From Shigella phage SSG23: a DNA stretch of 64,000 nucleotides. Positions 1,354 to 60,561 of the stretch are shown piece by piece. How positions within the stretch are numbered: position 1 is the first letter of the stretch; the number at the start of each line of letters is the position of its first letter. The notes under the pieces were generated by a model. That model saw only the letters and a list, made by a program, of their open reading frames with translations. It made no database searches and was not told the origin of the DNA. The position numbers were made by a program, and so were the translations under genes. Location of the stretch: sequence record PQ351811, one strand, 5' to 3'.

Positions 1354-4032
1354 ATGTATTTTCTGTCATGTGAGCGAGTAGGTGATAAGATCTACGAGCG
1401 TTATATTGATGATGCTGGACAAGAACAAGAGCGTTACGTTGAATATACGCCAACATTATTTCATCATGCCGCGCCTGGTATGGTTACTAATTATAAAGAT
1501 ATCTATGGCAAGCCTTGCATTGCTAAAAAATTCCCATCTATGAACGAGGCCAACAAATGGCGTAAAAAGATGGGGGAAATGGGGCAAGAGGCACTAGGGA
1601 TGGATGATTTTATCATCTCCTATCTGTCTGATACATATAAAGGTGAGATTCGATATGACCGAAATAAAATCCGTGTAGCATGGGTTGATATTGAGGTCAC
1701 TGCACCGGAATTTCCTAAACCAGAAGAGGCGAAATATCCTATCGATGCAATTACGCATTATGACTCCGTACATGATCGTTTCTTTGTATTTGATTTGAAA
1801 GGAAAAAACGGTGAAATCTGGGAAGCAAGAAAGTCTATTCTTCGACCTGATATTGTAGAGCGCGTTGTTTATAACGTCTATGATACAGAAGATGAATTGC
1901 TATTAGAATACATCCGATTCTTTGAGGAAAATCGACCAGTTGGCTTCACTGGCTGGAACACAGAAACATTCGATATCCCGTATATCATTAAGCGTATCAG
2001 TAATAAGTTTGGAAGTCGAACGGCAAACCGTTTAAGCCCGTGCGGTAAGATTAAATCCCGAATCTCACAGGATGATTTTGGCAACGAGCGTGAAGCATTT
2101 ACGATCATGGGGATCGAAAGCCTTGATTACATTGACCTGTACAAGAAATTTAGCTTTACGACTCAACCAACATATGCATTAGATTATGTTGCTGAATATG
2201 AGACAGGAATCGGTAAGGTTGATTATGATGGTCCGTTAAAGAAATTGCGTGATGACAACCATCAACTTTACATCGATTATAACATCGGCGACGTTGACCG
2301 TGTGCTGGCGATTGATAAAAAACGTGGTTTTATTGATCTGGTGTATAGCCTATGTTTCTATGCAAAAATTAAATTTAACCATGTTTATAATCCGATGAAA
2401 GTATGGGATGCTATTATCTTCGGATCTCTGAAAGCAGAGGGTAAAGTAGTACCGGAAAATAAGATACAGCCTAAGCAGACTTATCCCGGCGCATTTGTAA
2501 AAGAACCTGTGCCGAATGCTTACCGTTGGATGATGAGCTTTGACTTAACAAGTCTTTATCCATCTATTATTCGACAGGTTAATATTTCGCCGGAAACTAT
2601 CGCTGGGTCTTTTGATGCTGCACCGATGCACGAGTATATCAATAAAACTGCCCCGCGTCCGAGTGATGAGTATTCTTGCTCGCCTAACGGATGGATGTAT
2701 CGAAAAGATATTCATGGTATCGTACCGATTGAGATTAAAAAGGTATTCGACCAGCGTAAGCAGTACAAAAACATGATGTTGGCATGTGATCGCAATGCTG
2801 AACTCTGTAAAGCGATTCTACACGATGAAAATCATGTTTATGGGGGAACCATTAGCTATAGCGTTGAAGTTCGTCATGACTTCGATGAAGCGTTTAAATC
2901 TATGCTTTCGGAATTGAGCAAAGATACCCTAGAAAAATTGCTGGAAGAATGTAAAGACGAGTCGATCTTGTGCAACACAAACCAGCTTTCTCGAAAAGTT
3001 TTGATCAACTCCCTTTATGGTGCGTTGGGGAATCCTAAATTCCGCTTTTATGATCTCCGTAACGCTAGTGCGATCACATTGTTTGGTCAGCTTGCAATTC
3101 AGTGGATTGAGCGTAAGATTAACGAATACTTAAACGAGCTTTGCGGAACAACTGATTTTGCATATGTTCGTTATTGTGATACTGACTCCGTTTATGTGCT
3201 GGTTAACAATGTTGTTGATAAGGTTGGCGGGGAAGACCGTTTCGACGATACCGAAAAACTTGTTGACTTCCTTGATAATTTCGGTAAGCATAGAATGGAA
3301 CCGATTATCGACAAGGGATATCGCGAGTTATGCGAGTACATGAACAACTATGAGCACTTGATGTTTATGGACCGTGAGGCAATTGCCGGACCGCCTTTGA
3401 AGTCTGCGGGTATCGGTGGATTCTGGACTGGTAAAAAGCGTTATGCTCTTAATGTTTGGGATATGGAAGGAACGCGCTTTGCTGAACCTAAGCTAAAAAT
3501 CATGGGCTTGGAAACACAACGTAGTTCTACTCCTAAAGCATGTCAGAAATCACTGAAAGAATGTATTCGTCGTATGTTGCAGGAAGGTGAAGAGTCATTG
3601 CAGGAATACTACGGTATTTTTGAGCAAGAATTTAGAAAACTTGACTATCTTGAGGTTGCTGCGGTATCATCTGCAAACAACCTACAGAAATACAGCGATT
3701 CAAACGGGTATCCGATTAAGGGTTGTCCGTATGCGGTTAAGAGTGTATTGTGTTATAATCGTAATGCTCGAAAATTCGGACTAGATCCGATTCGTGAGGG
3801 CGAGAAAGTTATGATCGTACCGCTCAAAGATCGAAATCCGTTTGGAGAAATCTGTTTTGGTTGGTTGTCTGGTACTCGTATTCCGCCAGAAATTGAATCA
3901 GAAGTGTTAAAGTGGTTAGACTGGCCTTTGTTGTTTAATAAGACTTTCGTCAAACCACTGGAGAACATTACCACGGCTGCAAAGCTGCAATATGAAAAAG
4001 TTGCTTCTCTGACTGACCTGTTTGACATTTAA
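1354..4032 (+). CDS. 43: DNA polymerase gp43 (family B)
   Basis: 892 aa from RBS-proximal ATG; long collinear similarity to T4 gp43 (YGKPCIAKKFPSMNEA, DIEV exo motif, SLYPSII, NSLYGALGN, YCDTDS pol motifs). Confidence 0.95.
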   Translation: MYFLSCERVGDKIYERYIDDAGQEQERYVEYTPTLFHHAAPGMVTNYKDIYGKPCIAKKFPSMNEANKWRKKMGEMGQEALGMDDFIISYLSDTYKGEIRYDRNKIRVAWVDIEVTAPEFPKPEEAKYPIDAITHYDSVHDRFFVFDLKGKNGEIWEARKSILRPDIVERVVYNVYDTEDELLLEYIRFFEENRPVGFTGWNTETFDIPYIIKRISNKFGSRTANRLSPCGKIKSRISQDDFGNEREAFTIMGIESLDYIDLYKKFSFTTQPTYALDYVAEYETGIGKVDYDGPLKKLRDDNHQLYIDYNIGDVDRVLAIDKKRGFIDLVYSLCFYAKIKFNHVYNPMKVWDAIIFGSLKAEGKVVPENKIQPKQTYPGAFVKEPVPNAYRWMMSFDLTSLYPSIIRQVNISPETIAGSFDAAPMHEYINKTAPRPSDEYSCSPNGWMYRKDIHGIVPIEIKKVFDQRKQYKNMMLACDRNAELCKAILHDENHVYGGTISYSVEVRHDFDEAFKSMLSELSKDTLEKLLEECKDESILCNTNQLSRKVLINSLYGALGNPKFRFYDLRNASAITLFGQLAIQWIERKINEYLNELCGTTDFAYVRYCDTDSVYVLVNNVVDKVGGEDRFDDTEKLVDFLDNFGKHRMEPIIDKGYRELCEYMNNYEHLMFMDREAIAGPPLKSAGIGGFWTGKKRYALNVWDMEGTRFAEPKLKIMGLETQRSSTPKACQKSLKECIRRMLQEGEESLQEYYGIFEQEFRKLDYLEVAAVSSANNLQKYSDSNGYPIKGCPYAVKSVLCYNRNARKFGLDPIREGEKVMIVPLKDRNPFGEICFGWLSGTRIPPEIESEVLKWLDWPLLFNKTFVKPLENITTAAKLQYEKVASLTDLFDI

Positions 4033-4093: not shown

Positions 4094-4282
4094 ATGAGAG
4101 ACATTGAAAAGATTAAACGTGAACGAGAGGAAGGTATAGAGCATTTCAAGAAAGTTCACGGAAATCACAGCAACGAAGTATTTGTGACGATCGATGTTGA
4201 TGCGATGAAAAAGTTAATTCAAGAGCACTACAAAGATCGAATAACAATGAAGCAATTAAAGTATTACGGATTAACTGAATAG
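4094..4282 (+). CDS. hypothetical small protein
   Basis: 62-aa ORF in the 43-uvsX gap; no motif recognised. Confidence 0.3.
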   Translation: MRDIEKIKREREEGIEHFKKVHGNHSNEVFVTIDVDAMKKLIQEHYKDRITMKQLKYYGLTE

Positions 4283-5737: not shown

Positions 5738-7146
5738 TTAAAACTATCTTTTCACAGTTGATTTACAATGGCGCATTCTTTACGAATGTATGGCCTCACC
5801 TTAAAGCGGACTACTTCACCGAAGACGAAGAAAAACTGATTTATAAGCTGATTAAAAAGCACGTAGACGAATATTCTAATATTCCTACGCCAACTGCATT
5901 ACAGATTGCTTTAGACAAGGAGAGAGGCAATCAGACAACATATGAAGGGGCTAAAACTCTTCTCGATTCGCTGGAGAATACACCGGAAGACCTTGATTGG
6001 TTAATGAAGGAAACCGAAAAATTTATCCGCGACCGCGCTATGTATAATGCAATGTCACGGGCGCTAGAGATTCAGGCGAACGCACAACTACCAAAAGAGA
6101 AACAGAATAAGAAATTGCCAAGTGAAGGCGCTATTCCTGAGATCATGCAGGAAGCACTATCCATTACGTTTGATTCTGATGTAGGTCATGACTGGTTTAA
6201 TGACTTTGAAAAACGATTCTTGTTATATCAGACTAAAGCGAATAAGATCCCGTTTAAGCTGTCTATTCTGAATAAAATCACGAAAGGCGGGGCAGAGAAA
6301 AAGACATTGAATGTTTTACTTGCTGGTGTAAACGTTGGTAAATCGTTGGGATTGTGTTCTCTTGCTGCGGATTATATGGAATGTGGTTATAATGTTCTGT
6401 ATATCTCAATGGAGATGGCAGAGCATGTCGTAGCCAAACGTATTGACGCAAATTTGCTTGACATTACCTTAGATGAATTGGATGATGGCAATGTTTCCTT
6501 TGCTGAATATTCCGCACGCATGAAACGCGTCAAGAATAAGAAAGCTGGAGAACGTCCAATCGGCAAGCTGATGATCAAACAGTATCCGACTGGTGGCGCG
6601 AACTCCAATCACTTTGAGGCGTTAATGAATGAATTGCGACTCAAGAAACAGTTTAAACCTGATGTTGTGATTGTTGACTATCTGGGGATTTGCGCATCGT
6701 CTCGCTTGCGTGTATACTCTGAAAATAGTTACACACTAGTTAAGGCTATTGCGGAAGAACTTCGCGGATTTTTTGTTAAGTGGGATGTTGTTGGTTGGAC
6801 TGCGGCACAGACTACCCGCGCGGGTTGGGATGCTTCCGACCTTAACATGAGTGATACCGCTGAATCAGCAGGTCTTCCGGCTACAGCCGATTTTATGTTG
6901 GGTGTAATTGAGACCGAAGATCTTGCAAAAATGGGTGTTCAATTACTCAAGCAGATTAAATCTCGTTACGGTGATAAGAACTATTATTCACGGTTTAACG
7001 TTGGTGTGAAAAAAGGCAATCAGCGTTGGTATGAAGTCCCAAACCAGATCGCAGATCAGGAGAATGCACAAGTTAAACCACAAAGCGCACAGCAAGCCGA
7101 GAAACGAGAAAAACTCGACGAGCTAGCAAATAACATGACTTTCTAA
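5734..7146 (+). CDS. 41: replicative helicase gp41 (DnaB-like)
   Basis: 470 aa; Walker A LLAGVNVGKS; size and position as T4 gp41. Confidence 0.9.
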   Translation: MIKTIFSQLIYNGAFFTNVWPHLKADYFTEDEEKLIYKLIKKHVDEYSNIPTPTALQIALDKERGNQTTYEGAKTLLDSLENTPEDLDWLMKETEKFIRDRAMYNAMSRALEIQANAQLPKEKQNKKLPSEGAIPEIMQEALSITFDSDVGHDWFNDFEKRFLLYQTKANKIPFKLSILNKITKGGAEKKTLNVLLAGVNVGKSLGLCSLAADYMECGYNVLYISMEMAEHVVAKRIDANLLDITLDELDDGNVSFAEYSARMKRVKNKKAGERPIGKLMIKQYPTGGANSNHFEALMNELRLKKQFKPDVVIVDYLGICASSRLRVYSENSYTLVKAIAEELRGFFVKWDVVGWTAAQTTRAGWDASDLNMSDTAESAGLPATADFMLGVIETEDLAKMGVQLLKQIKSRYGDKNYYSRFNVGVKKGNQRWYEVPNQIADQENAQVKPQSAQQAEKREKLDELANNMTF

Positions 7147-7196: not shown

Positions 7197-7832
7197 ATGA
7201 TCGCTAATGCTTTACCGCCAAAATGGATCGTAAGTCGTTTTTATACTCTCAAGGAAGGTAACGCACCTGATGGTCGTCCGATCCGAGATCTGTTTCTGGA
7301 GATGACTACAGCCGAAGCACAGTTTTATAATGATCTGACAGACGATAAGCCATTTCTCGTAAATTCGGTGGACCTTGATGGTAATGTTACGTCAATTATC
7401 GCACATGGTGGGGAAGTGAAAAATATTACTTCCTTGCGTGATCACGGTTGGGAAATTGCTTGTGTATTTCCTGCGGATGTACGCGGATTCTTTGATGAGG
7501 TATCTGATATTAAAGTAAATGCACTGGAACCATATGACGAGAACCCACCACTGAAAGAAGAAAAAGAGTTGACACCGGAAGATGTAGGCAGTATACTACA
7601 ACCCGACCTGTTTAAAAAGATTAGCGGTTTATGGACTATTACCCTGTATCCAACCGCATTAGGTTTAGAATTGGGTATGCCAACTTATTCTGATATTGAT
7701 AATTGGACTAAGCACATTGATAAAGATGTTGAAAAACAGCGAAACAATGCTAAACTACAGTTGAAAGAGAAACGCAAAGATCTTGAACGACAACTGAAAG
7801 AAACAAAACATTTGCTTTCTACGTTCGCTTGA
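7197..7832 (+). CDS. hypothetical protein
   Basis: 211-aa ORF with upstream RBS; no motif recognised. Confidence 0.45.
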   Translation: MIANALPPKWIVSRFYTLKEGNAPDGRPIRDLFLEMTTAEAQFYNDLTDDKPFLVNSVDLDGNVTSIIAHGGEVKNITSLRDHGWEIACVFPADVRGFFDEVSDIKVNALEPYDENPPLKEEKELTPEDVGSILQPDLFKKISGLWTITLYPTALGLELGMPTYSDIDNWTKHIDKDVEKQRNNAKLQLKEKRKDLERQLKETKHLLSTFA

Positions 7833-10332: not shown

Positions 10333-10368
10333 AAATTAGTTGACACTACTCTATAATGGTTTTATTAT

Positions 10369-10398
10369 GCCTCCCGTCGAAAGATTGGAGGCTTTTTA
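10369..10398 (+). terminator. rho-independent terminator after gene 56
   Basis: Hairpin GCCTCCC...GGAGGC followed by TTTTT. Confidence 0.6.
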
Positions 10399-10400
10399 TT

Positions 10401-10904
10401 ATGCAATTCACACCAGAAGAACTTAACATCATTGATGAAGTGATGAACTCTAAAGAAAATATCGATATGTCGATCCTTAATGGATTGATTGAAAAGACTG
10501 AACGGTTAGTGCATCACGAAGCCTTGTATCGCGGTGTGAGCAAAAGAGAAGGCCGTAAGCTGGATACCTTAATTGTGGGTGATTCTTTCGTTGTAGAGCG
10601 TCCTATGAGCTTTACGCCACTACAATCAACAGCAGAGGACTTTGCAACCGATGTTTATGCAACAGGAAAGATTATTGCAGTAAAACCTACCAAGCCTTGC
10701 ATGAATTATTACGAACATGCTATAGACCGAGTGGTGTCTAAAGAGTATGACAATCCGACTACTCGACTGTCTTTGTATGCTATGTTGGCTGATGAGCGCG
10801 AGTGCATATACAAGACAGGGACGACCATGATCCTTGATGAGATCGAGGAAGTTTACGCGTGCAATGGCGACCTGATAGAGATTTACAAATTTTCTTTAAT
10901 TTAA
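10401..10904 (+). CDS. hypothetical protein; possible mono-ADP-ribosyltransferase (ModA/ModB-like)
   Basis: 167 aa; candidate R-S-ExE triad (LYRGVS, S/T-rich LQST, ERECIY) with ART-like spacing; occupies the modA/modB slot between 56 and dda. Confidence 0.3.
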   Translation: MQFTPEELNIIDEVMNSKENIDMSILNGLIEKTERLVHHEALYRGVSKREGRKLDTLIVGDSFVVERPMSFTPLQSTAEDFATDVYATGKIIAVKPTKPCMNYYEHAIDRVVSKEYDNPTTRLSLYAMLADERECIYKTGTTMILDEIEEVYACNGDLIEIYKFSLI

Positions 10905-49751: not shown

Positions 49752-49820
49752 TAGTGAGGTGAATTAATCCTTCTTCTGGATACCTGATAAATAATGGTAT
49801 ACAGAAAAGAGGATTTATTC

Positions 49821-50468
49821 ATGAACTTACAAAAACTACACGACGCAATCATAGAAAAAGCGAAGATAAGAGGAACCGTTGAAGGATATAAGGAAACACA
49901 TCATATTTTACCGCGATCTATGGGTGGCGGTGATGAAGTCGATAACCTGATTGATTTGACAGCCAAAGAACATTTTGTGATTCATCACCTGCTAGCAAAA
50001 ATTCATGGTGGACCTATGGCGCAAGCATTTGGTATGATGTGTTTGGCAAAAAATGCTAAGACCAATAAAAGAGATTATGTTGTTTCGTCTAGGGTATATG
50101 AACAAGCTAGGGTACTGATATCTGAACAAAGAAAGGGTAAGCCTATGAAAGAAGAAACGCGAAGAAAGATTAGCGAATCTTCGAAAGGTGTATTGAAATC
50201 AGAAGAGACAAAAGCTAAAATGCGTAAACCAAAAACAAAGGAGCACGCGTTAAACATTTCAAAAGCTAGAATGGGAAGTAAAAATCCTATGTTTGGGAAA
50301 CCATCGCCAACTAAAGGAATACCACATAGCGAGGAAATGAGAAAGCTGATTGCACAAAGGACAAAGGAAGCAACAATGGCAGATCCTTGTCCGCATTGCG
50401 GTAAAATTACCAATAAAGGCAATGCTCTACGATGGCACTTTGATAACTGCAAAATGAGGAATATGTGA
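49821..50468 (+). CDS. HNH homing endonuclease (MobE-like; HNH + NUMOD3 repeats + C-terminal zinc finger)
   Basis: ETHHILPRSMGGGDEVDNLIDLTAKEHFVIH; repeated basic K-rich motifs; CPHCGK; inserted between nrdA and nrdB like T4 mobE. Confidence 0.75.
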   Translation: MNLQKLHDAIIEKAKIRGTVEGYKETHHILPRSMGGGDEVDNLIDLTAKEHFVIHHLLAKIHGGPMAQAFGMMCLAKNAKTNKRDYVVSSRVYEQARVLISEQRKGKPMKEETRRKISESSKGVLKSEETKAKMRKPKTKEHALNISKARMGSKNPMFGKPSPTKGIPHSEEMRKLIAQRTKEATMADPCPHCGKITNKGNALRWHFDNCKMRNM

Positions 50469-57569: not shown

Positions 57570-57893
57570 ATGACCGTTAAGACTCCTAAAGCACTTGGTG
57601 ATTATGTAATTATCGAAGCTAAAGCAGAAAGCGCAGGGACCGAAGTAAAAAGCTCTATGGGGATCATTATTGAGCAAAAGCGCAATATGGGCGAGATTCC
57701 GCTGGTAGGTAAGATTATTGATATTGGTGAAACTGTAGATAAAGAATTGCTGGGTAAAACTGTTCTACTGCCACACGGCAAGATGAATAAAGTTCCTCAC
57801 CCAGACGTTATTAACGGCGTTAAGAAGGAAGAAGAGATCGATCTTAAATGGACTGTAACACACAAACAGAATATTGTGGTAGTTTACGGTTAA
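57570..57893 (+). CDS. 31: co-chaperonin gp31 (GroES-like)
   Basis: 107 aa; GDYVIIEA..., mobile-loop-like region, KVPHPDV matches T4 gp31 NVPHPFV; position next to cd. Confidence 0.75.
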   Translation: MTVKTPKALGDYVIIEAKAESAGTEVKSSMGIIIEQKRNMGEIPLVGKIIDIGETVDKELLGKTVLLPHGKMNKVPHPDVINGVKKEEEIDLKWTVTHKQNIVVVYG

Positions 57894-57975
57894 TGATTTT
57901 AAACGGCGGGAATTATCCCGCCTATATTTTGGCTATATGATTTTGTAAGTTATTGATTATTAAGGAATTTTTATT

Positions 57976-58140
57976 ATGAAAACTATGAATGTAAACATCC
58001 ACGAAATCCATACCGAAGTATTCACCGAAGAAGACCAGTTTGGTGTATGGGTAAATCCTCACTCGATTACTATCGATATTCCTCATGACGATTACGATCC
58101 GTTCTCTATGATTAGCGAGATTAGTTTCAATGACTTCTGA
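57976..58140 (+). CDS. hypothetical 54-aa protein
   Basis: RBS-preceded ATG; below ORF-track cutoff. Confidence 0.3.
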   Translation: MKTMNVNIHEIHTEVFTEEDQFGVWVNPHSITIDIPHDDYDPFSMISEISFNDF

Positions 58141-58609
58141 AATTGATATCTATGCGGGTGGACCTTATCCATCTGGCGAGTTGAGTAATTTCAATAAAAG
58201 ACCATTCCGTCTATTTGGTTGCGATATTAACAGCACAGAAGGATTTTTACAGGGGCTAAGATTTAAGAACCCTCAGAGACAAAGAGAAATCTTTTTGATG
58301 CACGGTGGCAAAGCAAAAAGAACCGGAAGGACTGAAAAGATAGAGAATCACATGCTATATTTTCAGGGTCGCCCGATTCATCGAATGAGTGAGCATTATT
58401 ACAGACTGGTACATCTGGCATTTGTTACGATGGCACGGAATAACCCAGAATTTTGTAAAGCATTACTCGCTACCGGAAATAAGAAATTGCGTCATAGCAT
58501 AGGTGGAACTGATCCGTTAAAGACCATATTGACCGAATCGGAATTTTGTAGTATCCTCAATGATATTCGTGAACGTTTAACAAAACGAGGTGAAAATGTC
58601 AATTCTTAA
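58130..58609 (+). CDS. NADAR-like (YbiA/DUF1768 family) protein
   Basis: 159 aa; ELSNF, STEGFLQGLRF (cf. YbiA DFSNF...TSEHYFQAQKF), KALLATGNKKL fit NADAR pattern as recalled. Confidence 0.5.
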   Translation: MTSEIDIYAGGPYPSGELSNFNKRPFRLFGCDINSTEGFLQGLRFKNPQRQREIFLMHGGKAKRTGRTEKIENHMLYFQGRPIHRMSEHYYRLVHLAFVTMARNNPEFCKALLATGNKKLRHSIGGTDPLKTILTESEFCSILNDIRERLTKRGENVNS

Positions 58610-60092
58610 TATCATTAATCAGCTTGCAGCGACCGACAAAACATCGCTGAAAGAAAAGATCCTGAAAGAATCTGCAAGCAATGAAACGCTGAAAGAATGC
58701 TTTTATCTGGCATATTGCAAACAGGTTACGTTTGGCGTAAAGAAATACGATAAACCGTCGCGTTATTCATCTGTGTTGTCTTTATCCGGTGCATTACAGG
58801 TCTTTAAAAATAAACTTGCCACGCGTCAAGTAACTGGTAATGCCGCATTACAGCTAGTTACCGATACTCTGACTTGCTTGTCAGAAGATGATGCTAAAGT
58901 TGCAATGATGGTCCTGAATCGTGATCTGGAATGCGGTTGTTCCGCTACCACAGCAAACAAGGTATGGAAGAAGCTGATTCCTCAGCAGCCGTGCCATCTT
59001 GCATCGTCATGTTCTGATAAGACTATTGCCAATATCAAATATCCGGCGTATGCACAACTTAAAAGCGATGGCGCTCGTGGTATGGCTGATATTGACGGGG
59101 AAACATTAGCAATCTATACCCGTTCAGGTAATACCTATCAGGGGCTGGATGATTTGTTTGCTGTTTTAGAGCGTCTACGAGGCCGTGGAGTTGTTTTAGA
59201 TGGTGAGTTGGTATATATGCCTACCCTTTCGCAAACACCAGCGCAGAACTTCGTTGATAGCGTTTATGATGGTACTCTGTCATGGATATTTGAAGAAGAG
59301 GAAATGCCATTAACGCCAGTAGCGGAAGCAGTGAAAGAATCAGTTGTTGCAGATCGTCAGACCGGAAATGGTATCCTTAACAAATCACTGAAAGGAACTA
59401 TTCCGAAAGAAGAAGCCCAATGTATTGTATACACCGTCTGGGATGTTATCGACCGTGATGTGTATTACGGAAACGAGAAAGCAACGAAGCAGTATAAAGA
59501 TCGATTTGAGGAACTAAAACAGATTGTTGAAGAACTTAACGATCCTCGTGTTCAGATAATCGAAAATACTGTAGTTAACAATATCGATGAGGCTCGCGAA
59601 GTATATCATCGCTATGTAAACATGGGATTAGAAGGTATTATCCTTAAAAATTTACATGGTGTATTTGAAGATCGTCGCAGTAAAGATCAGGTTAAATTTA
59701 AAGAAGTGATTGACTTCGACGCGGAAATTGTTGATGTATATCCGCATAGTAAAGATCCTAACAAGGTAGGCGGTTTTACTGTCCGTAGTGCGTGCGGACG
59801 AATGACGACTAACACCGGATCGGGATTGACCGACACCACAACCGAAAAAGATGATGATGGTATTGAACGTGTAATTCCGTTCGATCGTCGAAATGAACTC
59901 GACCGAGAAATGTTATGGGCTGACCGTCATAACCTGATTGGAAAAGTCATTGAGATGACATGCAACGGGTATATCCGCAGCAAATCACGTAAAGAAGATG
60001 AACCGGAGTTCTCTTTATTTCTCCCGATCATCAAACGTATTCGCTACGACAAGACCACTGCAAATACAGTAAAAGAGGTATTCGATGTGTGA
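58596..60092 (+). CDS. 30: ATP-dependent DNA ligase gp30
   Basis: NRDLECG, ANKVW, YPAYAQLKSDGARG (ligase KxDG), VLDGELVY, GIANKSLKGTI, EGIILKN, KFKEV match T4 gp30. Confidence 0.9.
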   Translation: MSILNIINQLAATDKTSLKEKILKESASNETLKECFYLAYCKQVTFGVKKYDKPSRYSSVLSLSGALQVFKNKLATRQVTGNAALQLVTDTLTCLSEDDAKVAMMVLNRDLECGCSATTANKVWKKLIPQQPCHLASSCSDKTIANIKYPAYAQLKSDGARGMADIDGETLAIYTRSGNTYQGLDDLFAVLERLRGRGVVLDGELVYMPTLSQTPAQNFVDSVYDGTLSWIFEEEEMPLTPVAEAVKESVVADRQTGNGILNKSLKGTIPKEEAQCIVYTVWDVIDRDVYYGNEKATKQYKDRFEELKQIVEELNDPRVQIIENTVVNNIDEAREVYHRYVNMGLEGIILKNLHGVFEDRRSKDQVKFKEVIDFDAEIVDVYPHSKDPNKVGGFTVRSACGRMTTNTGSGLTDTTTEKDDDGIERVIPFDRRNELDREMLWADRHNLIGKVIEMTCNGYIRSKSRKEDEPEFSLFLPIIKRIRYDKTTANTVKEVFDV

Positions 60093-60561
60093 TAATGAAG
60101 GGGCGAAAGCCCCTAAACCTAAAAAATTGTCAAAGAAAGAGCAACGCCAGATCCTGAAAATGAAATACGGTGGACGTTGTGCCTATTGTGGCGAGGAACT
60201 AGGGGATCGCTGGCACGCAGACCACATCAAACCAGTATTGCGACGCTCAAAAGTAGTCTATGATGAAAGTGGACGAATTGCCCGTAATGATGATGGATCG
60301 TGGAAGTATAAGGTTGTAGGAATGCATAAACCGGAGCACGATATACTTGATAACATGAATCCGGCTTGTGTGCAATGCAATCTTTACAAAAGCTGTATGG
60401 GCTTAGAATACTGGCGTAAGTGTATACGCGAGAACTTCCAGAAGTACATTCAACGTAACATGGGATTACGTGCGGCTAAACGCTTTGGCTTACTTTCAAT
60501 CCACGATCAGCCAGTAGAATTTTATTTCGAAAAGTACGAGCGCGAGCATCAAGAAAAATAA
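60085..60561 (+). CDS. HNH endonuclease (free-standing)
   Basis: 158 aa; CAYCGEEL...HADHIKPV...NMNPACVQCNLYK classical HNH motif. Confidence 0.7.
   Translation: MCDNEGAKAPKPKKLSKKEQRQILKMKYGGRCAYCGEELGDRWHADHIKPVLRRSKVVYDESGRIARNDDGSWKYKVVGMHKPEHDILDNMNPACVQCNLYKSCMGLEYWRKCIRENFQKYIQRNMGLRAAKRFGLLSIHDQPVEFYFEKYEREHQEK

Follow-up and report, generated by a model that had tools for sequence, protein, structure and literature searches.

Shigella phage SSG23 carries a short reading frame, gene 30.3, in the interval from gene 31 to the DNA ligase gene, and the question raised by this locus is whether its product is a counter-defence enzyme and, if so, against which defence. The window in which we analyzed it is a 64,000-nucleotide stretch of sequence record PQ351811. 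A first-pass annotation, made from the letters alone, had called the product NADAR-like and had offered two roles for it: counter-defence against DarT-type toxins that ADP-ribosylate DNA, or partnership with the phage's own ADP-ribosyltransferases. Our analysis suggests that SSG23 30.3 is very probably the Krischvirus (RB49-type) orthologue of T4 gp30.3 (AdfN), a guanine-ADP-ribose DNA glycohydrolase that neutralizes the toxin DarT1. Family membership, fold, active-site residues and gene order were computed here; enzymatic activity and counter-defence come from the literature on the T4 orthologue, and we infer that the Krischvirus allele would share that activity.

Gene 30.3 in Krischvirus genomes

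Gene 30.3 runs on the plus strand from an ATG at position 58130 to a stop codon ending at 58609 and encodes 159 amino acids, exactly the coordinates and length given in the first-pass annotation. The open reading frame, matches to PF08010 and phrog_652, BLASTP and the predicted fold together identify it as an adfN orthologue encoding a single-domain, phage-type NADAR. No alternative-frame ORF of at least 40 amino acids was found on the plus strand inside it, whereas T4 has an annotated internal ORF, 30.3', which has no counterpart in SSG23.

The product is 100% identical to RB49 gp30.3. Shigella phage SFHK24 (genus Krischvirus) matches the surrounding 2.6-kb region with 100% identity, and over the same 2.6 kb JSE, the Ec_Makalu phages and further RB49-like phages show 96-98% identity. 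Each of the 59 matching phage records has a DNA identity of at least 95%, and in 59 records the protein, too, is at least 95% identical, a degree of conservation that argues for purifying selection. SFHK24 and most relatives carry the gene as a 'hypothetical protein'; the SSG23/SFHK24-type gene could be relabelled as an AdfN-type NADAR, DNA ADP-ribosylglycohydrolase. In a tblastn search with the 30.3 protein, 1509 records of phages of Escherichia, Klebsiella, Aeromonas, Acinetobacter, Vibrio and other groups contained a homologue, and 1501 of these matches span at least 80% of the protein, so that the gene is kept intact in phage records. An exhaustive profile search of the gp30.3 family returned 1665 cluster representatives (E<=1e-3). 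The family HMM detected a single gp30.3 copy in SFHK24, the closest complete genome, and no second NADAR copy there.

The position of the gene between gene 31 and a DNA ligase gene, as first proposed, is correct. Gene 31 (57570..57893, plus strand) encodes a GroES-like co-chaperonin with a weak Cpn10 match (E=0.0029), annotated in near-identical phages as a head assembly/morphogenesis co-chaperone that works with GroEL. Directly 3' of it, a consensus scan detected a terminator-like GC hairpin with a T-run (57905..57922, plus strand), which is also annotated as a 'terminator' in Ec_Makalu records and which, judging from the sequence, may divide gene 31 from a unit made up of 31.-1, 30.3 and 30. 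The 54-residue ORF named 31.-1 in the RB49 record (57976..58140, plus strand) has no Pfam match, and its end overlaps the start of 30.3 by 11 nt. At the other end, gene 30 (58596..60092, plus strand, with the start as in the SFHK24 annotation) encodes an ATP-dependent DNA ligase recognized by PF01068 (E=2.4e-22). Preceded by GAGGTGAAA, the ligase ATG at 58596 falls within the end of 30.3, so that the two genes overlap by 14 nt, an arrangement suggestive of translational coupling. From this arrangement of reading frames, 31.-1, 30.3 and 30 probably form one translationally coupled chain. A promoter scan found no convincing sigma-70-type promoter between the hairpin and 31.-1/30.3/30.

The order 31, 30.3, 30 is shared with T4, in which the gene likewise lies downstream of gene 31 and upstream of the ligase gene, and this syntenic place beside gene 30, together with end-to-end similarity of the proteins, speaks for orthology. 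The SSG23 neighborhood is nevertheless more compact than that of T4. SSG23 30.3 abuts the ligase gene, whereas in T4 the two are separated by 30.2 and 30.1; towards gene 31, SSG23 has only 31.-1 where T4 has rIII and 30.4-30.9. The T4 loci used for comparison were gene 30.3 at 6308..6766 of L001 and gene 61.2 at 4133..4759 of L005. Genes flanking SSG23 30.3 encode a polynucleotide kinase/phosphatase, a dCMP deaminase, a 31.1-like WYL_2 protein, gene product 31, the ligase and an HNH endonuclease. The HNH endonuclease gene (60085..60561, plus strand) overlaps the ligase gene end by 8 nt at the place where T4 has alt.1 and alt, and a second homing endonuclease gene (49794..50468) lies between nrdA and nrdB; both look like mobile insertions.

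Family membership and the NADAR fold

The 30.3 protein matches the Pfam family PF08010 (Phage_30_3) with E=1.2e-38 and 132.5 bits (cut-off 36) over profile positions 2-138 of 138, and PHROGs assigns it to phrog_652 (E=2.5e-45). BLASTP aligns its residues 3-150 with residues 2-152 of T4 gp30.3 at 38% identity (E=2e-30), reaching the last residue (152) of the T4 protein. Like SSG23 30.3, the T4 protein is a single-domain NADAR core matching PF08010 over its full length. The Pfam NADAR profile itself, PF08719, which had been proposed as a check on the NADAR assignment, gave only a sub-threshold match, at 15.5 bits (E=0.021) against a gathering score of 35.1. Some members of the gp30.3 family score up to 27 bits on the same profile. 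Among NCBIfam profiles only 'NADAR family anti-phage protein' was matched, and faintly (E=0.023), apart from a DltA match described below; the defence-system profiles of PADLOC returned none. By Pfam sequence criteria, the 30.3 protein is thus a member of a separate gp30.3 family.

An AlphaFold2 model built from a 12-sequence alignment (mean pLDDT 94.2, pTM 0.89) shows the YbiA/NADAR fold, with a helical core and small beta-hairpins at its flanks. Foldseek searches of the PDB with this model ranked E. coli YbiA first (2b3w, E=2.5e-6, TM 0.65) and an ADP-ribose-bound NADAR of Phytophthora second (8bau, E=1e-3); all further matches had E>3. Aligned by hhalign, the gp30.3-family profile and YbiA correspond over 125 columns (probability 90.7%, E=1.3e-6), and YbiA was the sole, weak PDB sequence match of the family profile (E=0.12). 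The motif parallels with YbiA pointed out in the first-pass annotation are kept in both the MAFFT and the hhalign alignments: G16-ELSNF21 pairs with YbiA GDFSNF, S35-TEGFLQGLRF45 with TSEHYFQAQKF, and A111-LLATG116 with LLLATA. Given the hhalign result, the PDB profile match and the fold, this motif likeness is beyond chance. The Foldseek matches to YbiA and 8bau, the hhalign and family-profile results and the motif correspondences together lead us to assign the NADAR fold to the 30.3 protein.

A PDB search by sequence alone also matched residues 45-151 of the protein, with nominal significance, to the D-alanine carrier-protein ligase DltA (7vhv_D, E=3.8e-4), accompanied by a faint NCBIfam DltA match. 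Neither fold search agrees with this kinship, and the match is therefore probably due to chance.

With YbiA, annotated as an N-glycosidase, as its top structural match, the 30.3 protein could conceivably be a metabolic N-glycosidase acting on riboflavin-pathway intermediates. Several observations argue against this. YbiA (2B3W, PF08719 family) and the 30.3 protein share 22% identity, the 30.3 protein falls into its own family, and gp30.3 proteins carry an extra beta-hairpin (residues 75-84) compared with YbiA. The last-strand Glu that defines the YbiA family is replaced by His in the 30.3 protein, no riboflavin genes lie nearby, and the T4 orthologue has a demonstrated role on ADP-ribosylated DNA (PMC11825919). 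We consider a riboflavin-related function scarcely credible.

Active-site residues and C-terminal helix

The active-site features expected of a phage NADAR were located by alignment. E37 (codon GAA, 58238..58240, plus strand) corresponds to the catalytic E36 of T4 AdfN and to the Glu of YbiA TSEHYF; of the 170 family domains aligned, 162 have a Glu at this position, and the Glu is invariant in the 12-sequence alignment. The classification by De Souza and Aravind, which PMC11543638 and PMC11125620 cite, distinguishes three NADAR types by their residue at another position: His in the phage type, Glu in the YbiA type and Asp in the BC4488/DarG1 type. H122 (codon CAT, 58493..58495, plus strand) is the last-beta-strand His characteristic of phage (gp30.3-type) NADARs, and the model has a strand at residues 119-121. 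Its counterparts in the alignment are the His of T4 and the Glu of YbiA KLVEH, and His is found there in 158 of the 170 family domains. E37 and H122 are thus each conserved in about 95% of the family. The C-terminal alpha-helix (residues 136-155, 58535..58594, plus strand) is intact in the AlphaFold2 model and has high pLDDT. T4 AdfN has the same catalytic Glu, phage-type His and intact C-terminal helix. The PF08010 match, the profile link to YbiA and these conserved Glu and His residues bear out the original designation of the product as NADAR-like.

The SSG23 protein differs from T4 gp30.3 in having seven extra C-terminal residues and an Arg at the K43 position. This residue, R44 (codon AGA, 58259..58261, plus strand), stands where YbiA has the Lys of QAQKF, and in the family the position is Lys in 159 and Arg in six of 170 domains. 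Arg together with intact Glu and His occurs only in the closest relatives, P0001 and P0002, and in P0144. The exchange is conservative and keeps the charge. The other conserved positions checked (among them Q41, Q51, K63, R85, T135 and E138) are all intact. With E37, H122 and the C-terminal helix present, R44 is the sole departure among the active-site features that we checked.

The NADARs of DarG1 antitoxins, which belong to the BC4488 family (Geobacter/Trichlorobacter lovleyi, 8BAT; E. coli C7), differ from the SSG23 protein on three counts. They carry an Asp in the last strand in place of H122, and they have an N-terminal extension, which the SSG23 protein lacks, its domain beginning at about residue 4. 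The darG1 gene moreover adjoins darT1, while SSG23 30.3, carried by a lytic phage, is an orphan, with gene 31, 31.-1 and the ligase gene as its neighbors.

Guanine-ADP-ribose and DarTG1 as candidate targets

The T4 gene 30.3 has been renamed adfN, and its product is a guanine-ADP-ribose DNA glycohydrolase (PMC11825919, PMC11125620). T4 or T2 deleted for adfN no longer plates on DarTG1 cells, and adfN supplied in trans rescues RB69 on such cells; AdfN is needed to overcome DarTG1 and also suffices to do so (PMC11825919). RB69, which is DarTG1-sensitive, has a frameshifted allele without the last helix (the final 15 residues), and E36A, K43A and C-terminal truncation each impair the function of T4 AdfN (PMC11825919). 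Purified T4 AdfN takes ADP-ribose (ADPr) off DNA (PMC11825919), and in vitro the purified T4 gp30.3 cleaves G-ADPr in DNA, not T-ADPr (PMC11125620). The methods of the latter report give 'gp30.3; residues 1-208' as the T4 NADAR construct, whereas T4 gp30.3 has 152 residues (NC_000866); 208 amino acids is the length of T4 gp61.2 (AdfA). The construct length given is probably a typographical error, and this bears on how far the in vitro result can be relied on.

By analogy with T4, DarT1 of the DarTG1 toxin-antitoxin defence would ADP-ribosylate guanine in the phage DNA during infection. The 30.3 enzyme, a predicted free-standing, core-only NADAR-fold N-glycosidase, would then cleave the bond between ADP-ribose and guanine and make the DNA replicable again. 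E37 and H122 would act in catalysis around the ribose, R44 standing where a Lys is usual. Because it would restore DNA by cleaving ADP-ribose from guanine, the enzyme would imitate DarG1 and in effect be an 'orphan antitoxin'. Two other phage-borne orphan NADARs, AdfN-Bas32 (T5-like) and AdfN-Bas60 (Vequintavirinae), also counter DarTG1 (PMC11825919). They belong to other NADAR clades, were acquired independently and need no phage-specific context, whereas SSG23 30.3 belongs to the T4-type (gp30.3) clade. The idea of a DarT-type counter-defence, raised in the first-pass annotation, is therefore supported by the function published for the T4 orthologue gp30.3 (PMC11825919, PMC11125620), within limits: it holds for guanine-ADPr made by DarT1, while thymidine-ADPr made by DarT2 (DarTG2) lies outside the published specificity. 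For reversal of C-ADPr, a summary table names only the NADAR and YbiA families and not phage NADAR (PMC12945103). Our literature search found no paper linking DarTG with Krischvirus, nor did we find a Krischvirus, RB49 or JSE mentioned in the set of 17 phages that PMC11825919 tested.

The function of the gp30.3/AdfN family was published in 2024-2025, so the finding is not new and its novelty is low; what it does illustrate is that motifs read without tools correctly recovered a phage counter-defence gene. The uncertainty left in the AdfN assignment stems from the 38% identity to the assayed T4 protein, the K-to-R change and a possible requirement for a partner. As to the last of these, T4 AdfN is fully functional only in T-even infection (PMC11825919), which makes it seem to need a partner factor. 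Neither T4 gp30.3 nor YbiA rescues uninfected E. coli from DarT1 toxicity (PMC11125620), and YbiA thus gave no in vivo protection against DarT1. With T4 gp30.2, gp30.1 and gp61.2 (AdfA) as queries, tblastn found no match for any of the three in the 64-kb window or in the whole SFHK24 genome. A further difference from T4, besides the lack of a detectable AdfA in SFHK24, is that RB49 DNA has unmodified cytosines (PMC4041780). SSG23 has a 211-residue ORF (7197..7832, plus strand) flanked by genes 41 (helicase) and 61 (primase), the place taken in T4 by 61.2 (AdfA, 208 amino acids). We rejected it as an AdfA homologue, since BLASTP found no similarity to T4 gp61.2 and it has no Pfam match.

These features allow a reading in which the Krischvirus allele is weakened or re-specialized, with the Lys-to-Arg exchange at an ADPr-contacting position or a missing T-even partner rendering it ineffective against DarTG1 or tuning it to another DarT variant or base. 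R44 does stand at a position where nearly all family domains have Lys, K43A lowers the function of T4 AdfN, the T4 enzyme needs its T-even context, and homologues of gp30.2, gp30.1 and AdfA are undetectable in the whole SFHK24 genome. Set against this, Arg carries the same charge as Lys, every other conserved position checked is intact (E37, Q41, Q51, K63, R85, H122, T135 and E138 among them), and the identity across the 59 records argues for purifying selection. We regard such a loss or shift of activity as improbable.

A related and somewhat less doubtful, though still tentative, proposal is that Krischvirus AdfN is a natural variant with a working mode unlike that of the T4 enzyme, given R44, the unmodified cytosine DNA and the lack of detectable AdfA, gp30.2 and gp30.1. 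If this were so, and if Krischvirus AdfN countered DarT1 alone, for example in uninfected cells, the T-even need for a 'partner' would be lineage-specific, and comparative genomics could find the T4 co-factor or a dependence on DNA modification; alternatively, the variant might have a shifted base or nucleic-acid specificity. The added scientific value of the SSG23 gene is small, and lies in the fact that R44, the stripped-down neighborhood and the unmodified-DNA background make the RB49-type allele a convenient comparator for the T-even dependence of T4 AdfN.

The chief substrate might also be something other than DarT1-modified DNA, be it guanosine-ADPr RNA, soluble ADPr derivatives of host NAD-based immunity or the products of Alt and Mod, with 30.3 serving as an ADPr 'housekeeper'. 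G-ADPr in RNA is likewise a substrate of the T4 NADAR in vitro (PMC11833690, PMC12945103), and Iyer et al. argued from gene context that phage NADARs act mostly on soluble ADPr derivatives and are expressed early, together with ADP-ribosyltransferases (PMC9503650). The phage has such enzymes of its own. A Mod-like ADP-ribosyltransferase ORF (10356..10904, plus strand; annotated start 10401), called 'RNA polymerase ADP-ribosylase' in SFHK24, has no Pfam match at E<=0.01, and its gene (10401..10904) adjoins a pyrophosphohydrolase gene and an Srd-like gene; Alt and a second ADP-ribosyltransferase are encoded beyond the window, some 10 kb downstream of 30.3. None of them adjoins 30.3, however. NADARs are inactive on phosphate-linked ADPr (PMC11833690), there is no report of activity on protein-ADPr, and T4 and T2 genetics, in which deletion abolishes and trans expression restores plating, point to DarTG1 as a true target (PMC11825919). 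We therefore consider a different chief substrate unlikely, and the partnership with the phage's own ADP-ribosyltransferases suggested in the first-pass annotation has no support so far. All three alternatives, an RNA or soluble ADPr substrate, a weakened or re-specialized allele and a YbiA-like metabolic role, are less likely than an AdfN-type enzyme directed against DarT1.

Domains of the gp30.3 type also occur outside phages. A Candidatus Falkowbacteria contig (L006) carries two paralogues (3089..3691 and 6001..6669) with a NUDIX gene nearby, and at this one locus examined, from a CPR bacterium, no DarT was linked to the gp30.3-type gene. Predicted fusions join gp30.3-type domains to BspA-type leucine-rich repeats, Lgt or an FtsW/RodA-like membrane domain (among P0073, P0110, P0086, P0114 and P0014), although errors of gene calling may account for some of them. 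In P0014, one full Phage_30_3 domain is accompanied by further partial, degenerate copies.
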